Shown here in pieces: positions 85-23,781 of a stretch of DNA of 45,934 nucleotides (position 1 is its first letter; every line of letters starts with the position of its first letter). Location: assembly GCA_947465215.1 (NCBI GenBank), contig CANHZX010000002.1, positions 1 through 45,934 of the forward strand, in the 5' to 3' direction. This stretch comes from Betaproteobacteria bacterium. GTDB lineage: Bacteria; Pseudomonadota; Gammaproteobacteria; Burkholderiales; SG8-41. The position numbers were made by a program, and so were the translations under genes. A model generated the notes under the pieces. It did not search any database. It was given only the letters and a program-made list of their open reading frames with translations, and was not told where the DNA came from.

Positions 85-1809
85 CTAGCGTTTGGGAAAC
101 AACTCGAAACACACGCTGCCGTGACGGTTTAATGACAGCACCAGCGTATATCCGGATTGCGCGGCAAACGCCGCGGCCTGGTAAAGACCGACACCCAGCC
201 CGCTTTCCGAAGGCACGGGGCCGCGGAACAGGTCTTCCGCCAGTTCCGCTGGAACCGGTGCGCCGTCATCACAGATGCGCAGGCGCGGACCCGGCAACAG
301 CGACACATGGACACGCTTGGCTTGCCCCTGTGAAACTTTATACAAGGCGTTTTCAATCAGGGTGTCGCTGGTACTGTCGAACAGTTCCGCCATCAGACGC
401 ATGCCCTCGGGTACCGGCTCGGTGCCGAATCCAACTACACGACCGGCGTAGCGCGACTGCAAACCCTGCCACCAGATCGCCCCATCAACATCCCTGCTTG
501 CCGATGCTTCCGGCGACTTGAGCTTTTCCAGCGTGGCACTCAAGCGCTGCGTGATATGCGGCAACTGCCGCTGCACCAGTGAACGGAAAGCCGTGTCATC
601 TGCGCCACGCATTTCCGCTGCAGCACAAATAGAGCGCAGTGACTGCAGCAGATTTTTGACATCATGGGTGAGCCGGGCGCCGGTTTCGTAGATGGCCTGG
701 GTATAGGCAGACTGCTGTCGCTGCTGTTCACGCCGCTGCGCCTCATAAAAATGCCCGACCATCTGCATCAGCAGTTTCTGGTGCAGCAGGATCGCCGGCG
801 TCAACTGCCTGGTTGCATGCATGGTCAGCAGCAACACGCCGGTCTCATGCTGCTCGGCATGCCCCTCTGGATTGCCGACATGACCGGAAGAAGCCGCAGT
901 AACCCAGGAGTAGCCGTTGATCCACGGCAGATCGAGCATATCGGTCAAGGCCGCACGCAGGAAATGCTCGGGCCGGGTTTCGGTTTCGGCAAGTTCGGCC
1001 AATCTGCGCATGCGCTGCTCGAAGGGCAGGCCAAGACCCAACAGATAGCGCGACAACAGGGTGCCAATCCCGCTGAAGCCGGCGCGGGGATTCCACAGCC
1101 AGGCAAGTCCGAGCATCAAGCCCGCCATCACCATCAGCGCCTGGGTAACACCAATCAGGTATTCACCTTGCGATGCCTGGTGGTGATGAATCACAAAACT
1201 GCCCAGCGCCAGAACCACCACCAGCAGAAACAGCACCAGCGTGTAAAACAGGTCGATGATCACCGGTGCACCGCGCAGGCGTTCGCCACCGGGTATCAGC
1301 ATGATTGCCAGCGGAAGCACCGGCATGCCGTAACGCACGAATGGCGCAACCTGGTTGGCAATATAACGGTCACTGAACAGCTGCGGCAGCACCCACATCA
1401 GCAGCATCGTCACCAGATAAATTGCAGCCAGCAAGGCAGCCGCACGCTCTCCCCGTGCATCGGTCGACGGCACACCACCGCCTACCAGTCCGCACAATGC
1501 CGCGATCCATGCCGCAATCAGCCACCAGTTGCCGGCAAACGCAAATAACGTTCCCAGGCCCAGCACCATCAGGGCATGCTGTAACGGAATGCGCCGCCCC
1601 CCGCGCCATACCGGCTGCCAGATCAAAAACAGACCGAAATGGGACATCAGCAGGCCGCGGGCCCACCATTCACCACCACCCCATGCAATGGCGCCATGCA
1701 GCGTAAGCAGTGCGGTTGCCAGCAGCACGTTCTGATGCCGCGGGGACTCCACGGATTTGACCCGCAGCGAAGCGGGGGCGTCTTTGGTATTGATCAAATC
1801 GGCGGGCAT
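85..1809 (-). CDS. Polytopic membrane sensor histidine kinase (HDxKN-type H-box, PrsK-like); no cognate response regulator inside the window
   Basis: 574-aa ORF. The N-terminal ~300 aa is a series of hydrophobic helices. The C-terminal half carries H-box RLTHDVKNLLQSL, N-box IENALYK, G1 ICDDGAPVP and G2 SGLGVGLY. Confidence 0.8.
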   Translation of the reverse strand: MPADLINTKDAPASLRVKSVESPRHQNVLLATALLTLHGAIAWGGGEWWARGLLMSHFGLFLIWQPVWRGGRRIPLQHALMVLGLGTLFAFAGNWWLIAAWIAALCGLVGGGVPSTDARGERAAALLAAIYLVTMLLMWVLPQLFSDRYIANQVAPFVRYGMPVLPLAIMLIPGGERLRGAPVIIDLFYTLVLFLLVVVLALGSFVIHHHQASQGEYLIGVTQALMVMAGLMLGLAWLWNPRAGFSGIGTLLSRYLLGLGLPFEQRMRRLAELAETETRPEHFLRAALTDMLDLPWINGYSWVTAASSGHVGNPEGHAEQHETGVLLLTMHATRQLTPAILLHQKLLMQMVGHFYEAQRREQQRQQSAYTQAIYETGARLTHDVKNLLQSLRSICAAAEMRGADDTAFRSLVQRQLPHITQRLSATLEKLKSPEASASRDVDGAIWWQGLQSRYAGRVVGFGTEPVPEGMRLMAELFDSTSDTLIENALYKVSQGQAKRVHVSLLPGPRLRICDDGAPVPAELAEDLFRGPVPSESGLGVGLYQAAAFAAQSGYTLVLSLNRHGSVCFELFPKR

Positions 1810-1854: not shown

Positions 1855-2619
1855 TTGCACATCACCACTATCGGCAAATACACGGCGCTTGAAGCGCTGC
1901 GCACCCGGGTCCCCGCAACCGCAATGCTGGCACTGGTGCTGCTGGTTTGCGCCAGCCTGTTCATCCGCGAACTTGCCGTCTTCGAAGCGATGCGTTTCCA
2001 GACCGGGTTTTATGCCGCCGCTGCCCGACTGGTCGCCGTATTCCTTACCAGCGTCTACGCACTCGCCAGCATAACGCGGGAATTCAACGACAAAGGCTTG
2101 GAAGTCGTGCTCGCGCTCGACGTGCCGCGCACCCATTATATCTGCGGCAAGCTCGCCGGCTTCATGGTGGTGGCGATGTTCATTGCCGTCGTCATGTCCC
2201 TGCCGCTCTGGATACTGGCTCCCGCCGGAGCAGCCTGCACCTGGACAGCTTCACTGATGATCGAGCTGGCGCTGATCGCAGCGCTGTCACTGTTTTGTGT
2301 GGTCACCTTCAGCCAGTTGCTGCCGGCTGCCGGATTTGTTGCAGCGTTTTATCTGCTGGCACGCTGCATCACCGCCATGCGGCTGATGGGTGCTCACCCG
2401 ATTTCCGGCGAAGACACCCCGTCCCAGCAATTCGCGTCGGCCCTGGTCGAAGGGTTGGGCTATCTGCTGCCTGCACTGGATCAATGGACAGCGACCTCCT
2501 GGCTGGTCGATTCACCGCCGGAACCCGTGCAATTACTGGGCATTTTTCTCCAGGGCATGGTCTACCTCACCTTGCTGACTGCCGCAGCCCTCTTTGATTT
2601 TCATCGCAGGAGTCTTTAG
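1855..2619 (+). CDS. Polytopic integral membrane protein, possibly an ABC-2/NosY-like permease fold; TTG start
   Basis: 254-aa ORF with about 6 hydrophobic helices. The N-terminus (HITTIGKYTALEALRTR followed by TM1) resembles ABC-2 permease N-termini. No ATPase gene is adjacent. It is divergent from the kinase gene with only a 45-bp gap. Confidence 0.55.
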   Translation: MHITTIGKYTALEALRTRVPATAMLALVLLVCASLFIRELAVFEAMRFQTGFYAAAARLVAVFLTSVYALASITREFNDKGLEVVLALDVPRTHYICGKLAGFMVVAMFIAVVMSLPLWILAPAGAACTWTASLMIELALIAALSLFCVVTFSQLLPAAGFVAAFYLLARCITAMRLMGAHPISGEDTPSQQFASALVEGLGYLLPALDQWTATSWLVDSPPEPVQLLGIFLQGMVYLTLLTAAALFDFHRRSL

Positions 2620-3366
2620 GTGAGTGCGCTGTTCCGGGATGGGGAAGAACGGACGCTGCATGCCGTTCCCTTCATGGTGCTACTGCTGCTGGCCCTGGCG
2701 CTGACGCTGCAGATCATCTTCCATGCACAACAGGCAACACCGCAAGCGCGGGCTGAATCCCTCGAGCCGGCGCCCTCCGCAAACGTGCTGCGTACTGCCA
2801 GTTTCGGGGAATCCATCGTAGCCGCCCAATTTTCTGTTCTTTACCTGCAGGCTTTTGATAACCAGCCGGGCATCAGCATTCCGTTCCGTGCGCTGGATTA
2901 CAACCGGGTGATGAGCTGGCTGCAAATCGCGCTGCAGCTCGATCCGCAAAGCGGCTATCCGCTGATGATGGCTTCACAACTCTACGGGCAGGTGAACGAC
3001 GAACCGCGACAACGCATGATGTGCGAATTCGTCCACGCCCGTTTTCTGGAAGCGCCGGACCTGCGATGGCGCTGGCTGGCGCACTGCGCCATCATGGCCA
3101 AACACCGGCTGCGGGACCAACCGCTTGCCCTGCGCTACGCCACCGACATCACCCAATACGCCGGAACTGCCTCGGGATGGGCGCGACAGATGAGGATTTT
3201 CATCCTCGAGGACATGGGCGAACTCGGTAGCGCCAAGGTGCTGTTGGGCGGACTACTAGCCACCGGGGAAGTGACCGACCCCAGTGAACTGCATTTCCTG
3301 ACCGAAAGGTTAAAAACCCTTGAAGAAAGAGAAAATTCCGCGGGTACGACGAAAATTCGACAGTGA
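2620..3366 (+). CDS. Membrane-anchored hypothetical protein (one N-terminal TM, helical-repeat-like soluble domain); GTG start directly after the upstream stop
   Basis: 248-aa ORF with a single hydrophobic segment, VPFMVLLLLALALTLQIIF. The GTG at 2620 abuts the TAG at 2617-2619 of the preceding gene. I recognise no family motif. Confidence 0.5.
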   Translation: MSALFRDGEERTLHAVPFMVLLLLALALTLQIIFHAQQATPQARAESLEPAPSANVLRTASFGESIVAAQFSVLYLQAFDNQPGISIPFRALDYNRVMSWLQIALQLDPQSGYPLMMASQLYGQVNDEPRQRMMCEFVHARFLEAPDLRWRWLAHCAIMAKHRLRDQPLALRYATDITQYAGTASGWARQMRIFILEDMGELGSAKVLLGGLLATGEVTDPSELHFLTERLKTLEERENSAGTTKIRQ

Positions 3367-3602: not shown

Positions 3603-4322
3603 ATGATGCGTGCTAAAGGTTTTACACTGATCGAAATCGCCATCGTGCTGGTCATTATCGGCCTGCTGTTGGGCGGTGTTCTGAAAGGCCAGGAGCTGAT
3701 CACCAGCGCCCGGGTTCGCAATATGATCTCGACGCAGGACGGTGTGAAAGCCGCTTATTTCGGCTTCCTGGACCGTTTCCGCGCATTGCCCGGCGACTAC
3801 ACCCAGGCCACCACCAACATCACCGGTATGTCCGCCAACTCGAACGGCAACGGCAACGGCCGCATCGAAACGGCTGCTACCCCGGTTGCCAGCAGCGTTG
3901 TCGCCGAAGACATCCTGGTCTGGGAACATCTGTCCAAAGCGGGCTTCATCAACGGCACCTACACTTATGCCGCAACTGCGTCGGCCACCACGAGCCCGAC
4001 CAACCCCTACGGCGTTTACATGCAGGTTGCGTATGACGGAGTCTATGGTGCAGGCACCACGGCTGTTCCTGCCGCCCTGCGCCACAACATCAAGACCGGC
4101 TCCCAAGTACCTGTTGAAATCATCGTTGAAGTCGATCGCAAGATTGATGACGGCGCACCGAATACCGGTGGATTCCAGTTCTCGGAATACCAGGGCAATG
4201 GCGCTGCAGCTCCCACGAGCGGCTCGACCACCACGCCGGCCTGTACCAGCCTGACCACTGCACCAGGCATCTGGAATGCAACGAACGGCAGCACGAACTG
4301 CGGCGGCGCCAGCCTGCTGTAA
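3603..4322 (+). CDS. Type IV pilin-like protein (prepilin-type N-terminal cleavage/methylation domain)
   Basis: Short leader MMRAKG followed by FTLIEIAIVLVIIGLLLGG, giving Gly-1/Phe+1/Glu+5. A C-terminal Cys pair (PACTS...STNCGG) is typical of the pilin disulfide loop. The central region is Ser/Thr/Gly-rich. Confidence 0.85.
   Translation: MMRAKGFTLIEIAIVLVIIGLLLGGVLKGQELITSARVRNMISTQDGVKAAYFGFLDRFRALPGDYTQATTNITGMSANSNGNGNGRIETAATPVASSVVAEDILVWEHLSKAGFINGTYTYAATASATTSPTNPYGVYMQVAYDGVYGAGTTAVPAALRHNIKTGSQVPVEIIVEVDRKIDDGAPNTGGFQFSEYQGNGAAAPTSGSTTTPACTSLTTAPGIWNATNGSTNCGGASLL
3843..3860 (+). repeat. In-frame hexanucleotide repeat (AACGGC)x3 inside the pilin gene
   Basis: Read directly as aacggcaacggcaacggc, encoding NGNGNG. 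Confidence 0.8.
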
Positions 4323-15985: not shown

Positions 15986-18976
15986 TCAGCCCGCCGCGCG
16001 CGACACCCGGCACAGCAGCACCTTGAGATTGGTCTGATCCGACACAGGATCGCGCTGGGTGTTGTCGGTCAGGAAATTCACCGGACGCCAAGGGTTGTAC
16101 GGTTGACGCTCGCCCCAGCCGATGGGGATGAACACCGCAGCCGAACGAATACCGGCATGCACCCAGGCCATGGCCTCGATGCTGCCGTGTGCCGACTCGA
16201 CGCGCACCCGCTCACCATCCTTGATACCGAGCTTTGCCGCCTTGTCGGGATGAATCTGGCAAAACAGGTCCGGCCACATTTCCTGCGACTGCCAGAAATA
16301 ATGCGTCCAGCTGTGGAAATGCGCTGCAGACGGACGCCCCGTCACGAGTTCGGTATCGAAGCCCTGTTCGCGCAACTTCAGCCCCGGGTGATCGGGTCCC
16401 GGAGCAACAATTCGACCGCGCGCACTGCCGGTGGCCGGCGAGCAGAAGGGTGAGATCACGCCGGCTTCGCCGTCGGTTTCCAGTAATTCCATATACGGCA
16501 GATCAATCAGCTGCTCGCGCTCCGAATAAAACTCGGGCAAAGCCGACAGTCCGAGCACATTGAATTTGGCTTCGAGTTCATCCGTCCAGAATTCCAGCTT
16601 GCCCGATTTCGTCGGGAAGCGCCGTCCCGGCGCCCCACCTGGCACCGTCGTGCCTTCGAGGAAAAGCGTTTCGATTTCCGGCGCGTCTTCGGTCGCTACC
16701 GGCTGACGCACCCAGCGGTACGGCACCGAGTGCAGACGCTTCTGTGTACAACCGCGCAGGCCTGGACTGTCGATGCAGACCTCGTCCCAGAATACCGCGG
16801 GGTCCTTGTACTTGTCTTTCAGCACATCATCAAAACCGAAGCGTTTGCCGAGTTCGATCCAGATCCACGTATCCGACTTCGCCTCGCCCGGCGGATCGAT
16901 CATCTTGTCGATCCACACAATGCGGCGGTCGTCGTTGGAGCGGCCAATCTCGCCTTTCTCGATGCCGCTCGCCGCGGGCAACAGGTAGTCGGCAAACGCC
17001 GAGGTTTCATTGGCAAAGAGTTCGATATGCACCATCAACTCGAGTGCAGCGAAGGCTTCACGCGCCTTAGCCTGCCCCGGCCATTGCGCCATCGGGTTGT
17101 TGCAGGTGATCAGCGCACGAATCGGATACGGTTTGCCGTGCAACATCGCCTCGGTCCAGCCTGCCGGACTGCGCCGCACCCGTTGCTTGTTGATTTTCGG
17201 CGCACGGTGTTCCGGCACCTTGGCCGCAATCGGCGTACCCGCGCTCATATTGAAAAAGGCGCCACCGCGCCGGCCCCAGTTGCCGGTGATAGCCGCGACG
17301 AACATCAGCACGCGGTTGGTCTGCGTGCTGTTGGTGTGCTGGTTGACGCCGCGACTGGCGAATATAACGCAGCCGTCGGCTGCAGCAATCTCTTCCGCCA
17401 GTCGTTTGATGTCTGCGGCCGCAATGCCGGTACTCTGTTCGGCCCACTCCGGCGTGTAGTTTTTCTGCAGGATGAAATCCCGCCACTGCTCGAAGCCTAG
17501 CACCCAGTCCGCGCAGAACTTCGTATCGTGCAGATTGTTGGCGATGATGTGCTGCGCCAGTGCCAGCCCCAGGGCCATGTCGGTGCCGGGACGGATCGGC
17601 AGCCAGCGATCCGCTTTCGACGCCGTCGCCGTCAAGCGCGGATCAACGGCCACCATCTTCGCGCCGTTTTTGATGCGCCAGTCATTGATCATGCCGAAAT
17701 ACACAGGCCGGGTCTCTGCCTGGTTATCGCCGATATAAACGTACAACTCGGCTGAACCGAGATCGTTTTCGGTATAACTGTTGCCGCTGCCGATGCTGCC
17801 CAGCGTGATTTCGAAAGCGACGTTTTTGCCGCTGGCGCAGAAGGGATCAGTGCCATCCTTGTTGGGCGTGCCGAACATCTGTGCAAACATTTTGGTGGTC
17901 GCACGGTAATCCAGAATGCCGGTGCGCGTGCCGATGAACATCGCCAGCGCTTCGGCGCCGTACTGATCGCGGATGACTTTCAGCTTGTCGGCAATTTCAT
18001 CGAGCGCCTGATCCCAGGAAATGCGTTCAAACTTTCCTTCGCCGCGCGCGCCGACACGCTTTTGCGGATACAGCAACCGGTGTTCGCTGTGATACATCTG
18101 CAGCGTCAGCTGCGATTTCGGGCAGACCCTGCCTTTCAGCAGCGGATCATCTTCGTTGCCGGTGATCTTTATTAACTTATTGTCTTTAAAGTGAAATTTT
18201 ACCGTGCAGCAGTTGAAGCAGATATTGCAGCCGCCGGGCACGACACGATCAGGCGCCGTGTCCTCCCGCGTTTCGCCATAGGGAAACGCAGGCTTCTGGG
18301 CCTGCACTGCGGTCTGCGCCGCCAACCCGTCCATGAATGACGGCCGCCGCGATTCGCCGGGATGCGCACGCGCGGGCGTAACCGCCGTCGGTGTCGCCTC
18401 GTTGCGAGGCGTGGTGCGCTCCAGATAAATCGTCGCAGGTCCGAGCAGGAAATGATCATTGTCGCGCGGCAGCCGGCCGGACTGTTTGGCATCAGCCAGC
18501 AGCTCGTCGCGTTTGCCGAAACGGATGGCCTGGGTCGGACAGACGCTGGCGCAAGCGGTTGTGGTTGAACCTTCGGCACGGCGCTCCGAACACAGGTCGC
18601 ACTTCACCGCATGATGACCTTTGGCGTCGTAACCCATCGCGCTGTACGGACAGGCGATGACGCATTCACCACAACCAGTGCAGCGCGATTCATCAACACG
18701 CACAACACCGGTGACCGGATCCTTGGAGATGGCTTTCGGATTCACCGGGCAGGCGCGCAGGCAGGCCGGACGCTCGCAGTGCTGGCAGGTCAGCGTCAGG
18801 AAGGCGAGGCCCGCCTCCTCCAGTGCGCTCGCCCACACCACCTTGTTGCGGTACTCGCCGGGGCCAAGGCGGTGCTCGGTCTTGCAGGCGGCCTCGCAAC
18901 TCTTGCAGCCGGTGCAGCGCTCCAGGTCGATCAGCAGCGCAACGCGTTCGGAAGGTCCGTTGTTCACACCATCCAT
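15986..18976 (-). CDS. Fused four-cluster ferredoxin subunit :: molybdopterin (Mo/W-bisPGD) oxidoreductase catalytic subunit; no N-terminal signal peptide
   Basis: 996-aa uninterrupted ORF. Residues ~20-150 carry four Cys groups (CTGCKSCEAAC, CQHCERPACLRAC, CTGCGECVIAC, CDLC-x12-CASVC). Residues ~250-996 are MopB-like, with the FS0 motif CNICFNCC...27 aa...CPK and a C-terminal beta-barrel-like segment (GDRVRVES-type: GERVRVESAHGSIE). Confidence 0.85.
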   Translation of the reverse strand: MDGVNNGPSERVALLIDLERCTGCKSCEAACKTEHRLGPGEYRNKVVWASALEEAGLAFLTLTCQHCERPACLRACPVNPKAISKDPVTGVVRVDESRCTGCGECVIACPYSAMGYDAKGHHAVKCDLCSERRAEGSTTTACASVCPTQAIRFGKRDELLADAKQSGRLPRDNDHFLLGPATIYLERTTPRNEATPTAVTPARAHPGESRRPSFMDGLAAQTAVQAQKPAFPYGETREDTAPDRVVPGGCNICFNCCTVKFHFKDNKLIKITGNEDDPLLKGRVCPKSQLTLQMYHSEHRLLYPQKRVGARGEGKFERISWDQALDEIADKLKVIRDQYGAEALAMFIGTRTGILDYRATTKMFAQMFGTPNKDGTDPFCASGKNVAFEITLGSIGSGNSYTENDLGSAELYVYIGDNQAETRPVYFGMINDWRIKNGAKMVAVDPRLTATASKADRWLPIRPGTDMALGLALAQHIIANNLHDTKFCADWVLGFEQWRDFILQKNYTPEWAEQSTGIAAADIKRLAEEIAAADGCVIFASRGVNQHTNSTQTNRVLMFVAAITGNWGRRGGAFFNMSAGTPIAAKVPEHRAPKINKQRVRRSPAGWTEAMLHGKPYPIRALITCNNPMAQWPGQAKAREAFAALELMVHIELFANETSAFADYLLPAASGIEKGEIGRSNDDRRIVWIDKMIDPPGEAKSDTWIWIELGKRFGFDDVLKDKYKDPAVFWDEVCIDSPGLRGCTQKRLHSVPYRWVRQPVATEDAPEIETLFLEGTTVPGGAPGRRFPTKSGKLEFWTDELEAKFNVLGLSALPEFYSEREQLIDLPYMELLETDGEAGVISPFCSPATGSARGRIVAPGPDHPGLKLREQGFDTELVTGRPSAAHFHSWTHYFWQSQEMWPDLFCQIHPDKAAKLGIKDGERVRVESAHGSIEAMAWVHAGIRSAAVFIPIGWGERQPYNPWRPVNFLTDNTQRDPVSDQTNLKVLLCRVSRAAG

Positions 18977-18977
18977 A

Positions 18978-19838
18978 TCAACCTCCCCATGACCGCAAAT
19001 GCCACCAGGTAATCGGTTCGCCGCCGGCGACGTAACCGGCGAAGAAAGTCACGGTGATCACATGGATCACCACACCCAGCACAAACAGCCAGGCCAGTGC
19101 CATATGCAGCGGCCGCCACCACGCCTGCTTGGCGGAAACCGCAGCACGGGTCCCCAGCAGCAGCGATTCCTCGCGCGCCAGTTTGCGGTAAGCCAGCGCC
19201 AATCCGGGTTTGCGGATGAAATGGGGCAGATTGACCGAGAACGTGCCCTCGTTTGCCTGCGGATCGAGTTGCGCCAGGAGCTCTCGCTTTTCCGCGATCA
19301 ATACGCGCAGCCGCGCCCGTGTTACGGCATCAGGCACTTGAAATGCCGGGGCTTTTGAGGCGAAGGTTGCCGCCATGCGCCGCGAACCACGGACCCGCGC
19401 CCAGACACCCAGCGCGGCCAACGCAACCAGCGTCAGCAACATCAGCGCCGGAGGCCGGCGCAGGAGTCCGCCGGAGTGGATTGCAATCAGCACCATGCCC
19501 AGCAGCGAACAGGCGACGTGGGCGTTGAACCAATTGACGGGATTGGCACCGCTACCGCCACGCTTGGCAATCACAAAAGCCACCGGCACCAGCAGCAGGA
19601 GCACGCCGGCAACGCCGCTCAGATACAACTGAGGGCTGCCGGGCGAACGCCAGGCTTCGGGCAAAAGACCGCGCAGCAAAAACCACAACACGATGGCCGC
19701 AACAGCCGCAACCGTCAGTTGCAGCAGCCTCGCGTCAGGAAGGTCGTTTCGTTGCAAGATGAAGGCGACTCGGCAATGGTTGCAGGGGTTGGGGCAGTTT
19801 ACATCGCCTCCAGCCCTCGCTGTCACGCGTATCCACAA
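18978..19838 (-). CDS. Five-TM membrane protein with two H-x13-H helices (putative di-haem b-type electron-transfer anchor)
   Basis: Five hydrophobic segments. H107-x13-H121 lie in one helix (HVACSLLGMVLIAIH) and H245-x13-H259 in another (HMALAWLFVLGVVIH). The stop at 18978 is 1 nt from the downstream start at 18976. The true start is uncertain, since there is also a TTG at the ILQRN position. Confidence 0.6.
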   Translation of the reverse strand: MWIRVTARAGGDVNCPNPCNHCRVAFILQRNDLPDARLLQLTVAAVAAIVLWFLLRGLLPEAWRSPGSPQLYLSGVAGVLLLLVPVAFVIAKRGGSGANPVNWFNAHVACSLLGMVLIAIHSGGLLRRPPALMLLTLVALAALGVWARVRGSRRMAATFASKAPAFQVPDAVTRARLRVLIAEKRELLAQLDPQANEGTFSVNLPHFIRKPGLALAYRKLAREESLLLGTRAAVSAKQAWWRPLHMALAWLFVLGVVIHVITVTFFAGYVAGGEPITWWHLRSWGG

Positions 19839-19866: not shown

Positions 19867-22569
19867 TCAGCCGCCCTTCAGTGCCAGCGTCACCCGCTTC
19901 ACCTGCGGATCCTCATTACTTTCGGAAACCACAAAGCCCAGTTCCTGGCACAAATCGAGCATGCCGCGGTTACTGCTCAGGACATGACCGACCATCGCCT
20001 CCAGTCCGCGGCGGCGCGCAACCTCGATCAGCACCATCATCATGCGCCGGCCGAGTCCGCGGCGCTGCCAGTCATCGGCAACCACGATCGCATACTCACA
20101 GGTCACTGCGTCCGGATTGGTGATGTAACGACAGACGCCGACCTCGACCTCCTTGCCGTCGCGCTGCACCGTCGCAACAAACGCCATCTCGCGGTCATAG
20201 TCGATCTGCGTGAAACGCACCAGCATCGTCGGCGTCAGTTCACGCAATGTATCCATAAAACGGAAACGCCGGCTCTCCGGTGATAAGCCTCTTACAAACT
20301 CCTGTTCCATCTCGGCATCTTCCGGCCGGATCGGCCGCAGCGTGACGAGTTCACCTTCCGGCGGCTGCCAGGTGCTGATCAGACGCGCCGGATAGGGGTG
20401 GATTGCCATATGGCCATAGCGGCCACGTATCGGCGCATGCTGGCCAACGACAATTCGTGCATCGGCAACGATGGCGCCGTTTTCGTCAACAATCAGCGGA
20501 TTGATATCGAGTTCCTCGATCCACGGCAGTTCGCAGACCATTTCCGAAATACGCAGCAGCACTTCTTCCAGCGCCTCCCGGTTCACCGCCGGCATCCTGC
20601 GGAAAGGTCCGAGCAGCTTCGATACCCGCGTGCTTGCAATCATCTCCGCAACAAGGAATGAGTTTAGCGGCGGCAGCGCCACGGCACGGTCCTTGTGCAC
20701 CTCAACCGCCACGCCGCCCGAACCGAAGGCAATCGCCGGGCCGAACACCGGATCTCGGATCACGCCGACCATCAGTTCGCGACCGTTGCGCCGGACCACC
20801 ATGGGCTCGACAGCAACACCGGTCACGCGTGCCTGCGGCTGCTTGCGCGCCACGGAATCAATAATCTGCTGATAGCCGGTCAGCACCGCCTGCGCGGAGT
20901 TCAGGTTCAACAGCACGCCGCCGGCATCCGTCTTGTGGGTAATGTCGGGCGAATCGATTTTCAGCGCCACCGGATAACCCAGTTCACCCGCGATCAGCAT
21001 CGCCTCATGGGCGCTATGCACGATAACTGTCTTTGCCACCGGCAGCAGGAACGCCGACAGCAGCGCCTTCGATTCAATTTCATTGAGGACGCTGCGGCGA
21101 TCGGTCAGCACCGAATCAATGATCAGCCGCGCCGCTTCGAGATCCGGGGCCGATCGGAGAGCCTGCGGACCCGGGGTCTGCATTAGTGCGCGCTGGTTAC
21201 GGTAGAACGACGATACATGCGCGAACGTTTCGACCGCGGGCTCCGGCGTGCGAAACACCGGAATACCGGCTTCGGCCAGACGACGTCGTCCGTCAATCAC
21301 CGAGGCATCACCCATCCAGCAGGCAAGCACGGGTTTGGAACGGCCGCGCGCCGCCTCGACCACGGCATCGGCAACGGCGGATGGTTCGGTCATCGCCTGC
21401 GGTGTCAGCATCACCAGTGCACCGTCGACATTTTCATCGGCGAGGCAGGCGGTAAGCCCGGCACGGTAACGCTCGGCATCGGCGTCACCGATCAGGTCCA
21501 TCGGATTGCCGTGGGACCAGTTCGACGGCAATACGGTTTGCAATGACTCAATGGTCGCCGGCGACAGATCGGCGAGCGGTATACCCAGATCCGCAGCACG
21601 ATCCGCAGCCATCACGCCCGGGCCGCCGCCGTTGGTGATGATCGCCAGGCGGTCGCCACGCGGCCGGATATGCGAGGACAAGGCCTGCGCCGCAGCCACT
21701 AACTGGCCGATGGTCGTTACCCGCACCGCACCGGCGCGATGGATCGCTGCGTCAAACACGTCGTCAGCGCCGACAATGGCACCCGTATGCGACACCGCAG
21801 CGCGTGAACCCACCGGATGCCGCCCGACTTTCATCAGGATCACCGGCTTCAGTCGCGCCGCTGCGCGCAGGCTCGACAGGAAGCGTCGCGCATCGCGCAC
21901 GCCTTCAATGTAGAGCAGGATGTGCTCGGTCTTGGGGTCGTTGACCAGATAGTCAATGATTTCGCCGAAGTCGATGTCCCGCGACCCCCCCATAGAGATG
22001 ACGCTCGAAAAGCCGATCTTGTTGGGCCCGGCCCAGTCGAGCATCGCCGTACACAACGCACCCGATTGCGACACCAGCCCGAGCGACCCCGGAAGGGCAT
22101 TGCCACGCGCGAAAGTGGCATTCAGGCCGACGCCCGGACGCATCACCCCCAGACAGTTGGGTCCGATCACCCGGACCCGGTGACGGCGCGCGTTTTCCAA
22201 CAATTCCCGCTCAAGCCTCGCCCCTTCCGGGCCGACTTCGGAAAAACCGGCGGTAATCACCACCACCGAACGCACGCCGGCCATGCCGCACTCGGTAATC
22301 AGCTGGGGTACCGTCTCGGGCGGCGTGGCGATGACCGCCAGATCCACACGCTGCGGCACCTTGTCGATGCCGGGAAAACACGGCACCCCTTTGATGCTGG
22401 TCTGCTTCGGATTGACCGCGAACAGCGCGCCGCGATAACCGGCGGCCAGCATGTTGTCGATCAGCACCGCACCGATGGAGCCCGCCCGCGTGCTGGCGCC
22501 GATGATGGCCACCGACGCCGGTTCGAACAGGGGGGTCAGATAGTGACGGTCCAGCAGGTTTGAGGCCAT
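19867..22569 (-). CDS. pat: Pat/PatZ-type protein acetyltransferase (NDP-forming acyl-CoA synthetase-like domains fused to C-terminal GNAT)
   Basis: 900 aa. It has an N-terminal CoA-binding domain (VAIIGASTRAGSIG), succinyl-CoA-synthetase-like and ATP-grasp regions, and a C-terminal GNAT motif QRRGLGRRMM. Confidence 0.88.
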   Translation of the reverse strand: MASNLLDRHYLTPLFEPASVAIIGASTRAGSIGAVLIDNMLAAGYRGALFAVNPKQTSIKGVPCFPGIDKVPQRVDLAVIATPPETVPQLITECGMAGVRSVVVITAGFSEVGPEGARLERELLENARRHRVRVIGPNCLGVMRPGVGLNATFARGNALPGSLGLVSQSGALCTAMLDWAGPNKIGFSSVISMGGSRDIDFGEIIDYLVNDPKTEHILLYIEGVRDARRFLSSLRAAARLKPVILMKVGRHPVGSRAAVSHTGAIVGADDVFDAAIHRAGAVRVTTIGQLVAAAQALSSHIRPRGDRLAIITNGGGPGVMAADRAADLGIPLADLSPATIESLQTVLPSNWSHGNPMDLIGDADAERYRAGLTACLADENVDGALVMLTPQAMTEPSAVADAVVEAARGRSKPVLACWMGDASVIDGRRRLAEAGIPVFRTPEPAVETFAHVSSFYRNQRALMQTPGPQALRSAPDLEAARLIIDSVLTDRRSVLNEIESKALLSAFLLPVAKTVIVHSAHEAMLIAGELGYPVALKIDSPDITHKTDAGGVLLNLNSAQAVLTGYQQIIDSVARKQPQARVTGVAVEPMVVRRNGRELMVGVIRDPVFGPAIAFGSGGVAVEVHKDRAVALPPLNSFLVAEMIASTRVSKLLGPFRRMPAVNREALEEVLLRISEMVCELPWIEELDINPLIVDENGAIVADARIVVGQHAPIRGRYGHMAIHPYPARLISTWQPPEGELVTLRPIRPEDAEMEQEFVRGLSPESRRFRFMDTLRELTPTMLVRFTQIDYDREMAFVATVQRDGKEVEVGVCRYITNPDAVTCEYAIVVADDWQRRGLGRRMMMVLIEVARRRGLEAMVGHVLSSNRGMLDLCQELGFVVSESNEDPQVKRVTLALKGG

Positions 22570-22977: not shown

Positions 22978-23781
22978 ATGAAATCCAACGAAAACCTCGA
23001 CCCGCTGGTCATCGGCGGTAAGTCCTACAGCTCCCGACTGCTGATCGGCACCGGCAAATACAAGGATTTCGCCGAAACCAAGGCTGCGGTGGAAGCCAGC
23101 GGCGCACAAATCGTCACCGTGGCGATCCGCCGCACCAATATCGGACAAAACCCCGGCGAGCCCAATCTGCTCGACGCCATCCCGCCGTCGAAATACACGC
23201 TGCTGCCGAATACCGCCGGCTGCTACACCGCCGATGACGCGGTGCGCACGCTGCGCCTCGCACGCGAACTGCTCGACGGCCATGATCTGGTCAAGCTGGA
23301 AGTGCTGGGCGACCCGAAAACCCTATACCCGAACGTGGTCGAAACCATCGCTGCCGCCAAAACACTGGTCAAGGACGGCTTCAAGGTCATGGTTTACACC
23401 TCGGACGACCCGATCATCGCCAAACAACTGGAAGAGATCGGCTGTGTTGCGGTGATGCCGCTGGCTTCATTGATCGGCTCAGGCATGGGCATCCTCAATC
23501 CCTGGAATCTGCAGATCATCATCGAGAGCGCGAAAGTGCCGGTGATCGTCGATGCCGGCGTCGGTACCGCCTCGGATGCCGCGATTGCCATGGAACTCGG
23601 CTGTGACGCCGTCCTGATGAACACCGCCGTTGCCGCTGCAAAAAATCCGGTGCTGATGGCCACAGCGATGTGCAAAGCCGTGGAAGCCGGTCGCGCCGCC
23701 TTCCTTGCCGGACGCATGCCGAAAAAACTCTATTCCGCCTCTCCGAGTTCGCCCACCGGCGGCATGATCGGCAAGTCCTGA
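22978..23781 (+). CDS. thiG: Thiazole synthase ThiG
   Basis: Conserved ThiG sequence throughout (LLIGTGKY..., [28 protein letters not shown]). Confidence 0.95.

Follow-up and report, generated by a model that had tools for sequence, protein, structure and literature searches.

The locus and its two-gene module

The window analysed here is a 45,934-nucleotide stretch of contig CANHZX010000002.1 from a Betaproteobacteria bacterium. On its minus strand, an open reading frame (ORF; 15986..18976) encodes a 996-residue oxidoreductase in which a ferredoxin (B) subunit is fused ahead of a catalytic (A) subunit. The present study concerns the joint of the two modules, where residues 209–229 (SRRPSFMDGLAAQTAVQAQKP; DNA 18352..18290) had been described in a first-pass annotation as a relic twin-arginine translocation (Tat) signal peptide; the sequence and coordinates given there are correct. 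We find that the joint holds a conserved N-terminal tail of the catalytic module, for which descent from a Tat leader is our preferred, though not a secure, explanation. The fused gene, its parts and its membrane partner, all on the minus strand, are as follows.

15986..18976, minus strand: fused ferredoxin and catalytic (B-A) subunit of a molybdenum/tungsten-bis(pyranopterin guanine dinucleotide) (Mo/W-bisPGD) oxidoreductase, without N-terminal Tat leader (ORF, Pfam, 120 full-length homologues among the matches listed)
18482..18949, minus strand: B module, residues ~10–165, a ferredoxin of the PsrB/NrfC/DmsB type with four Cys groups for four [4Fe-4S] clusters (Fer4_11; match to PsrB, 2vpw_B, at residues 11–158; 16 of 16 Cys invariant)
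18347..18421, minus strand: variable, probably disordered linker, residues 186–210, including S209 and R210 of the motif as first annotated (indels, 3–9 residues per position, low predicted local distance difference test (pLDDT) score)
18329..18346, minus strand: conserved core R211-P212-S213-F214-M215-D216, aligned with R-R-x-F-L-K of genuine leaders (conservation, phmmer, global hhalign)
18287..18328, minus strand: Ala/Gln-rich stretch, residues 217–230, at the position of a Tat hydrophobic core and cleavage site, too polar and too short (hydropathy, charge)
18230..18286, minus strand: conserved start of the mature A module, residues 231–249, F-P-Y ... R237 ... D243-R244-V-V-P-G-G (P232 in 121/121, Y233 in 119/121)
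18122..18229, minus strand: cysteines C250, C253, C257 and C285 of the FS0 [4Fe-4S] cluster (Molybdop_Fe4S4; all invariant)
16019..18121, minus strand: rest of the catalytic module, comprising the Molybdopterin and Molydop_binding domains; C380 is the putative Mo ligand (Pfam; C380 aligned with Thermus PsrA Cys173; MopB fold matches)
18978..19838, minus strand: membrane partner, dihaem-cytochrome-b-like, matched by DUF4405 only (DUF4405, invariant His)

Pfam analysis assigned Fer4_11 to residues 58–156, Molybdop_Fe4S4 to 244–292, Molybdopterin to 300–712 and Molydop_binding to 877–986, in agreement with the domain layout first proposed. Judged by its FS0 cysteines, both molybdopterin domains and the Cys ligand, the A module is assigned to the Psr/Phs-like branch of the Mo/W-bisPGD (dimethyl sulfoxide reductase / MopB) enzymes. 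C380 is invariant in the homologues, as are C250, C253, C257 and C285, and a fold search with the AlphaFold model of the 996-residue protein matched MopB structures.

Sequence searches yielded 1947 homologues at E ≤ 1e-10. The fused domain set occurs in 120 of 120 homologues among the matches listed, nearly all of which are 967–1021 residues long, and the entire fused family forms one 50%-identity cluster. Genome-locus counts refer throughout to the best 80 genome matches (loci L007–L086), which are independent assemblies from several phyla. All 80 encode a near-full-length relative, and none of the 79 loci that span the joint carries an in-frame stop there. Taken together, these sequences indicate that the B-A fusion is genuine and not an assembly artefact. 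The 80 matches are all metagenome-assembled, from freshwater Burkholderiales, Nitrospinota, Rhodospirillaceae, Thalassobaculaceae and Rickettsiales-labelled bins, with 0/80 cultured isolates; the window itself is 99% identical to a metagenome-assembled genome of Burkholderiales from Lake Mendota (JBIIZE010000014.1).

The segment occupies the leader position of exported relatives

As had been proposed, the segment lies at the N-terminal edge of the A module: the unfused A gene of the relative P0122 begins with MWRVIGRPTVLAAAGFPY, just ahead of the same R-P...FPY sequence. C250 aligns with residue 44 of Thermus PsrA, and therefore a stand-alone A subunit would begin at about residue 207. The spacing from R211 to C250 is 39 residues, versus 40–49 residues from the RR pair to the first Cys in five Tat-bearing relatives (P0125, P0127, P0217, P0235 and P0260) and up to ~70 in the Tat-bearing P0130–P0132. 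An FPY-like motif (QPY, YPF) also lies downstream of the Tat leader in the exported P0125, P0131 and P0132. The segment directly precedes the FS0 domain, at the leader position of exported relatives, which is the placement expected of a remnant of the NarG type.

The segment cannot serve as an independent N-terminal signal, as the first-pass annotation had concluded, since it starts at residue 209 of 996 with no upstream in-frame start. We confirmed the codons GTT ACG CCC GCG CGT GCG CAT CCC GGC GAA TCG CGG CGG, and found no ATG, GTG or TTG in the 15 codons ahead of the Arg pair. M215, named as the only ATG and placed past the RR pair, is indeed the first ATG, but a TTG at L218 comes after it. 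An internal start at M215 or L218 was rejected because both follow the Arg pair. At the N-terminus of the whole chain, an RR motif is absent in all sampled homologues, whose N-termini are short.

The tail is a selected part of the protein

Conservation was assessed in an alignment of 121 fused proteins of 69–100% identity. Residues 186–210 are indel-rich, most positions being gapped in at least one third of the sequences, and the 25 residues ahead of R211 vary freely with insertions and deletions. R211 is Arg in all 105 of 105 non-gap members, P212 is kept in 120/121, F214 in 103/108 and D216 in 92/108, while position 213 is A or S, and M215, A220 and P229 are also conserved. Conservation continues through F231, P232 (121/121), Y233 (119/121), R237, D243, R244, P247, G248, G249 and C250. 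By comparison, R210, the first Arg of the pair as annotated, is Arg in only 63/105 members. The twin arginine therefore fails as the defining feature of the segment: the family consensus is R-P-x-F-M-D, not R-R-x-F-L-K.

Codon usage agrees with selection on the core. Across 33 close loci, R210, R211, P212, F214 and D216 are unchanged and each is encoded by 2–4 synonymous codons, as against 3–9 residues per position in the upstream linker; this evidence is supportive and not independent, because these loci were chosen by a motif regular expression that pre-selected the core. Distant members retain a basic-Pro-x-hydrophobic-hydrophobic-Asp core, as in P-S-R-P-R-F-V-D of Nitrospinota and E-R-R-R-P-A-V-V-D, E-R-K-Q-P-A-V-V-D and A-R-R-D-G-P-A-L-M-D of Alphaproteobacteria; other distant members have G-R-T-R-P-A-F-T-K. 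In the AlphaFold model of the 996-residue protein (mean pLDDT 74.7; predicted template modelling score 0.84), pLDDT is below 50 for residues 191–200 and 202–210, order begins at about R211, and helices are placed at 213–216 and 218–225 with pLDDT 60–66. Kept across Burkholderiales, Nitrospinota and Alphaproteobacteria, the core marks the tail, as judged from these alignments, as a selected part of the protein and no inert fossil. The word relic is accordingly apt for descent, insofar as Tat ancestry is supported, and not for a passive remnant, the core being near-invariant behind a variable linker.

The segment is Tat-enriched but is no signal peptide

To quantify Tat likeness, the 150 representatives closest to the A module (clustered at 50% identity) were screened for genuine Tat leaders, and the 29 so identified served to construct a position matrix. 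Genuine leaders score 14.6 to 38.9 bits in leave-one-out tests. The window segment scores –2.5 bits with R211 as first Arg and –8.0 bits in the register of the first-pass annotation, in which R210 is first, so that the close resemblance to Tat leaders claimed there was put too strongly. Background windows have a mean of –30.7 bits, a standard deviation of 8.5 and a 99th percentile of –10.4 bits. In the R211 register the segment ranks second among 972 windows of its own protein, about 3.3 standard deviations over the mean; in the R210 register it ranks sixth. In 200 family members, the highest-scoring joint window ranks first in 31 and among the top three in 90, with a median score of –7.1 bits. 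This median lies above the 99th percentile of the background and thus indicates that the joint segment is Tat-enriched for its position. By its sequence, the segment is clearly enriched in this sense and equally clearly no signal peptide.

The departures from a leader are specific. The Phe of the Tat consensus stands two residues past the second Arg. In the S-R-R-P-S-F-M-D of the window, compared with S/T-R-R-x-F-L-K, the Phe is one residue too far and an Asp replaces the Lys; the S-R-R-x-x-F letters noted earlier are present but sit one residue off S-R-R-x-F-L-K. In the best register of the 200 members, Pro occupies the position of the second Arg in 135 and Asp that of the Lys in 113. The 12 residues after the motif have a mean Kyte–Doolittle hydropathy with a family median of –0.03 (–1.50 to 1.27), versus 1.17 (0.66 to 1.78) in the 29 genuine leaders, and contain a median of two charged residues, versus none in the leaders, so that an uncharged core is lacking. 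The V-Q-A end noted for the segment exists in the window copy but is not conserved, A226 being present in 32/121 homologues.

Alignments that reach the leaders agree on one register. Searched with residues 201–996, phmmer runs into the leaders of three distant Tat-bearing homologues, P0217, P0235 and P0260. In P0235 and P0260 the first Arg falls opposite R211 and the second opposite P212; the alignment with P0217 begins at S213. F214 pairs with the Phe, M215 with Leu or Met, D216 with Lys and, in P0235 and P0260, G217 with Gly. Global hhalign places RPaFmd on SRRxFlK in the same register with low confidence, and the match to the NCBIfam PhsA model opens with model position 5 at residue 211. 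Alignment with stand-alone homologues had been suggested in the first-pass annotation; of 29 phmmer alignments, 3 reach the leaders and 26 do not pair the motif with a leader.

Residues 30–40 of P0130, which lie after its leader, include V-P-G-E-G-R-R, aligned by phmmer with H-P-G-E-S-R-R at window residues 205–211 (18346..18364). A second conserved element is one reading of this match; chance is the other, and the one adopted here. A search of solved structures with the joint region alone gave PDB alignments that start at or shortly before the FS0 cysteines and never reach the leader; this search is uninformative, as the leader is missing from many deposited chains.

Export was lost before the subunits fused

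The closest relatives of the A module outside the fused family are either unfused proteins with no Tat leader or exported proteins with a genuine one, as listed below (A, B and C denote the catalytic, ferredoxin and membrane-partner genes).

P0122 / P0271: 55% identity to the A module; order B then A; N-termini MWRVIGRPTVLAAAGFPY; MTRSRGMLALAGRLI...
Rokubacteria/Methylomirabilis type (P0272–P0287): 57–62% to P0122; order B-A-C, with B stop and A start overlapping as TGATG; N-terminus MSRITGPGRRTGEHLLKTAWR...FPY
P0294: 56% to P0122; order B-A-C; N-terminus MRRFGSGTTAVLKGLF...YPY
P0124: 46% to the A module; order A-C-B; almost no tail
P0125 / P0127: 44% / 40% to the A module; order A-B-x-chaperone (P0125 locus); genuine leader, S-R-R-T-F-L-K in P0125 and N-R-R-E-F-I-K in P0127, with hydrophobic core

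Trees were computed by bootstrap neighbour-joining on 677 columns with 60 replicates and are distance-based only. The fused clade has 100% bootstrap support, as has its union with the unfused B-A(-C) relatives; addition of P0124 gives 87%. Further outward, the nodes that add the Tat-bearing P0125/P0127 and then the Tat-bearing P0130–P0132 both have 100%, and more Tat-bearing lineages lie outside the latter node. The Tat-less clade is thus nested in three Tat-bearing layers (bootstrap 87–100%), and the tree is most parsimoniously read with the Tat-exported ancestor first suggested. On this reading, the ancestral A subunit shared by these lineages would have had a Tat leader, which was lost once.

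Unfused relatives are already without a Tat leader, in B-A-C (L087, L088), A-C-B (L006) and B-A (L003) order. A gene of similar size adjoins A in 3 of these 4 loci, and the two that were compared are both homologous to the membrane partner. The B and A genes of L087 share the sequence TGATG, in which the stop of the first overlaps the start of the second. Because unfused relatives with the same partner already lack the leader, loss of export preceded fusion. From these sequences, fusion occurred later and once, in a Tat-less lineage already using the cytochrome-b-like partner. The idea that fusion had relocated the module to the cytoplasmic side is contradicted by the same four loci. As an observation in its own right, the enzyme occurs in four layouts, C-BA fused (window 15986..19838), B-A-C (L087, 4450–8166; L088, 3327–7131), A-C-B (L006, 2141–5860) and B-A without adjoining C (L003, 3791–6732), which form a natural series on subunit fusion.

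The unfused Tat-less relatives carry tails of their own, namely MRRFGSGTTAVLKGLF in P0294, MTRSRGMLALAGRLI in P0271 and GPG[RQ]RTGEHLLKTAW in the Rokubacteria type, each about 20–27 residues ahead of FPY. Ordinary cytoplasmic MopB proteins in the same list begin about 5–15 residues before FS0 and have no such tail. The differing Arg-containing tails of the unfused lineages look like independently decayed leaders.

The membrane partner points to a cytoplasm-facing enzyme

The stop codon of the membrane-partner gene lies 1 nucleotide from the start codon (ATG) of the fused gene. Homologues of the partner begin at about codon 24–28, so that its translation probably does not start at the TTG at 19838. 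The partner has five predicted helices and four invariant His residues, two per helix in two helices and 14 residues apart, a pattern that suggests a dihaem cytochrome b anchor. Between transmembrane helices 4 and 5 (TM4 and TM5) there is a long basic loop. In 77 of the 80 loci the gene immediately precedes the fused gene, the other three loci being truncated; it is homologous to genes in L001, L006 and L087, with 38% identity for the C gene of L087 and 33% for that of L006. By sequence, the enzyme is predicted to face the cytoplasm, and its layout parallels that of NarGHI, in which a dihaem-b anchor carries a catalytic dimer on the cytoplasmic side.

Origin and role of the tail

With moderate confidence, we favour the explanation that the enzyme faces the cytoplasm and that residues 211–249 are the N-terminal tail of its catalytic module, most likely derived from a Tat leader and now kept for another role. 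We infer the descent from the position of the segment, its shared register and the tree, and any present docking or maturation role by analogy with NarG. In this transformation, the S-R-R-x-F-L-K of the n-region would have become x-R-P-x-F-M-D, and the hydrophobic core would have been shortened and made polar. The resulting tail may be an ordered, partly helical connector that starts where the floppy B-to-A linker ends. As judged from NarG, it would probably dock on the ferredoxin module or the membrane anchor, or act as a handle for cofactor insertion. A putative sequence of events can be proposed. Initially, the ancestor would have been exported. Export would then have been lost and the cytochrome-b partner taken into use, in unfused B-A-C or A-C-B operons. 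Finally, the adjacent, translationally coupled B and A genes would have fused, leaving the remnant buried in the chain.

Several observations weigh against Tat descent and a maturation role. When the fused-family joint is compared with Tat-bearing N-termini by local hhalign, the alignment starts at FPY and leaves the leader out; forced to extend, it drops in score from 279 to 274. Of the 29 pairwise phmmer alignments, 25 stop before residue 224, short of the motif, and a 26th (P0130) pairs the motif with a post-leader stretch. Two registers compete, with R211 as first or second Tat Arg; the pattern G-[R/Q]-R of the unfused relatives would make it the second. The matrix scores are all far under those of genuine leaders and mostly negative, and from these sequences no statistically significant homology between the segment and Tat leaders can be shown. 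AlphaFold confidence for residues 211–230 reaches just 60–66, P0124 has no tail although it lies within the Tat-less clade, and the trees are by neighbour-joining only. Finally, the P0125 operon encodes a PF02613 chaperone of the NarJ/TorD type. A Pfam scan of 32 window ORFs found no PF02613 gene, and tblastn with the chaperone of the exported relative detected no NarJ/TorD-type chaperone within 3 kb in any of the 80 loci; the maturation-handle idea therefore has no genomic support.

Two other accounts of the joint fare far worse. The existence of unfused relatives in which the B stop overlaps the A start could suggest that a sequencing or assembly frameshift merged separate B and A genes, making the segment a true N-terminus. 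This is improbable to the point of being negligible, given one continuous frame in 120 homologues among the matches listed and in 80 independent assemblies from several phyla, a joint region without a start codon, and the monophyly of the fused clade (bootstrap 100%). It is likewise very improbable, if slightly less so, that the segment is a working export signal and that internal initiation or cleavage near residue 205 frees a Tat-exported A subunit. The window copy does have S-R-R and an Ala-rich stretch ending in V-Q-A, but that end is not conserved, no in-frame start precedes the RR pair (M215 and L218 follow it), R-P is the consensus of the family, in which the first Arg occurs in about 60% of members, and the core is polar, charged and only about 11 residues long, at least 17 bits below the weakest genuine leader. 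Furthermore, the electron path requires the ferredoxin module beside FS0, and the basic loop of the membrane partner, about 90 residues between TM4 and TM5, is typical of the cytoplasmic side. Artefact and working internal signal are both effectively excluded.

The main rival holds that there is no Tat ancestry at all, and that a conserved inter-module connector or N-terminal strap has a basic-Pro-x-hydrophobic-hydrophobic-Asp core that is Tat-like by chance. We regard this as quite possible, though not as the probable answer. A structural role alone can explain strong conservation, and the negative matrix scores, the local profile–profile alignment that ends short of the segment and the segment being reached in just 3 of 29 pairwise alignments all suit it, as do the consensus R-P instead of R-R, the Asp at the Tat Lys position, the divergent RKQPAVVD and RRDGPALMD forms and the lack of a clear motif in L086. 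Chance would have to account, however, for a segment exactly at the leader position in a clade nested among Tat-bearing relatives, and for the single register returned by three independent methods (PhsA model, global hhalign and phmmer). It would also have to explain why, at this very place, several unfused Tat-less relatives bear RR-containing tails of other sequence when ordinary cytoplasmic MopB proteins have none.

Building on Tat descent, a more specific proposal, which we offer tentatively and hold to be rather unlikely, is that the buried remnant is a working recognition element in an undescribed, cytoplasm-facing, quinone-linked class of enzymes, the R-P-x-F-M-D helix serving as an anchor-docking peptide or as the handle of a proofreading chaperone for insertion of Fe-S clusters or the Mo cofactor. 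That class comprises a dihaem-b DUF4405 anchor and a fused ferredoxin–catalytic chain; its known members all come from uncultured freshwater Burkholderiales, Nitrospinota and marine Alphaproteobacteria. If the proposal is true, peptides derived from Tat leaders can retain an assembly role away from the chain end.

That some respiratory enzymes facing the cytoplasm, NarG among them, descend from exported forms is supported at the sequence level chiefly by remnant Tat peptides, and the window locus would add a case in a different branch of the family. Here living relatives order the steps, from exported with chaperone, to non-exported and unfused with a new cytochrome-b anchor, to fused; on Tat descent, the remnant would have outlasted the gene fusion and still be under selection. 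This bears on the evolution of enzyme sidedness, and hence on redox-loop bioenergetics, and on the fate of Tat-leader-derived peptides after export is lost. A further outcome is the recognition of a two-gene molybdoenzyme module, widespread and uncharacterised, among abundant uncultured bacteria of fresh and marine waters.

Neighbouring genes

Directly upstream of the two-gene module, 19867..22569 (minus strand) encodes a 900-residue protein with the layout of a Pat-type protein acetyltransferase (coenzyme A-ligase, ATP-grasp and GNAT domains), which is kept beside the module in 20 of the closer loci. The gene thiG lies nearby at 22978..23781 (plus strand); it is found within 3 kb in 8 of the 80 loci and about 6 kb off in the alphaproteobacterial L001 (874–1656). 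A functional link of thiG to the module was rejected, since so few loci have it near, and its proximity most likely reflects local synteny. Elsewhere in the window, three sizeable ORFs, 85..1809 (minus strand), 1855..2619 (plus strand) and 2620..3366 (plus strand), have no Pfam match; they adjoin a pilin-like protein with an N-terminal methylation motif at 3603..4322.

Comparison with known systems

The literature searches turned up no account of the fused family, an internal Tat remnant or DUF4405-linked molybdoenzymes. Among solved structures, the closest relative is the polysulfide reductase-type complex PsrABC of Thermus (PDB 2vpw). PsrA is the best match of the A module (residues 250–994, E 1.5e-65) and PsrB that of the B module (E 1.1e-21). 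Like PsrABC and PhsABC, the window enzyme has a Cys Mo ligand, C380 corresponding to PsrA Cys173, and a three-component layout with a membrane subunit for the quinone site. By contrast, the Psr and Phs enzymes are Tat-exported, with a genuine leader on A and with A and B as separate chains, and PsrC is an NrfD-type anchor without haem. None of the curated NCBIfam equivalog cut-offs, that of DmsA included, is reached; the best scores are 324 bits for Fdh-alpha (cut-off 666) and 311 bits for PhsA (cut-off 694); given the latter, the window protein is no PhsA equivalog.

The exported P0125 and P0127, both from metagenomes, share 40–44% identity over the whole A module and a Q/F-P-Y mature start, and form the sister group of the Tat-less clade. 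They differ in having a genuine leader with hydrophobic core and, at the P0125 locus, a PF02613 chaperone in the operon and A before B with no fusion and no adjoining DUF4405-type partner seen. The unfused Tat-less relatives (P0272–P0287, P0294, P0122/P0271 and P0124) are nearer, with 46–62% identity, the same cytochrome-b-like partner, no functional leader and, in most, a short Arg-containing tail ahead of FPY. Their B and A genes are separate (B-A-C or A-C-B), however, and their tails are unlike R-P-x-F-M-D, P0124 being almost tail-less.

The nearest precedent for the tail itself is the remnant Tat peptide of NarG (Ize et al. 2009, cited in PMC10609526). NarJ binds this peptide as a helix during maturation; after assembly the peptide lies buried between subunits, touching NarI, and its deletion impairs membrane anchoring (PMC10609526). 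The window differs in that its candidate remnant is internal, about 210 residues into the chain with a ferredoxin subunit fused ahead, and in that no NarJ-family gene was found near the locus or within 3 kb in the 80 loci. It differs also in belonging to the Psr/Phs-like branch with a DUF4405-type anchor, as against the Nar branch with NarI, and its tail is described here from sequence and an AlphaFold model. Both are predicted or known to be cytoplasm-facing complex iron-sulfur molybdoenzymes with a cytochrome-b anchor, and both have a degenerate Tat-like motif just ahead of the FS0 cysteines. Both have exported relatives with intact leaders, and in both the putative remnant is conserved and not decaying, with a helix reported for the NarG peptide and predicted for the tail of the window enzyme.

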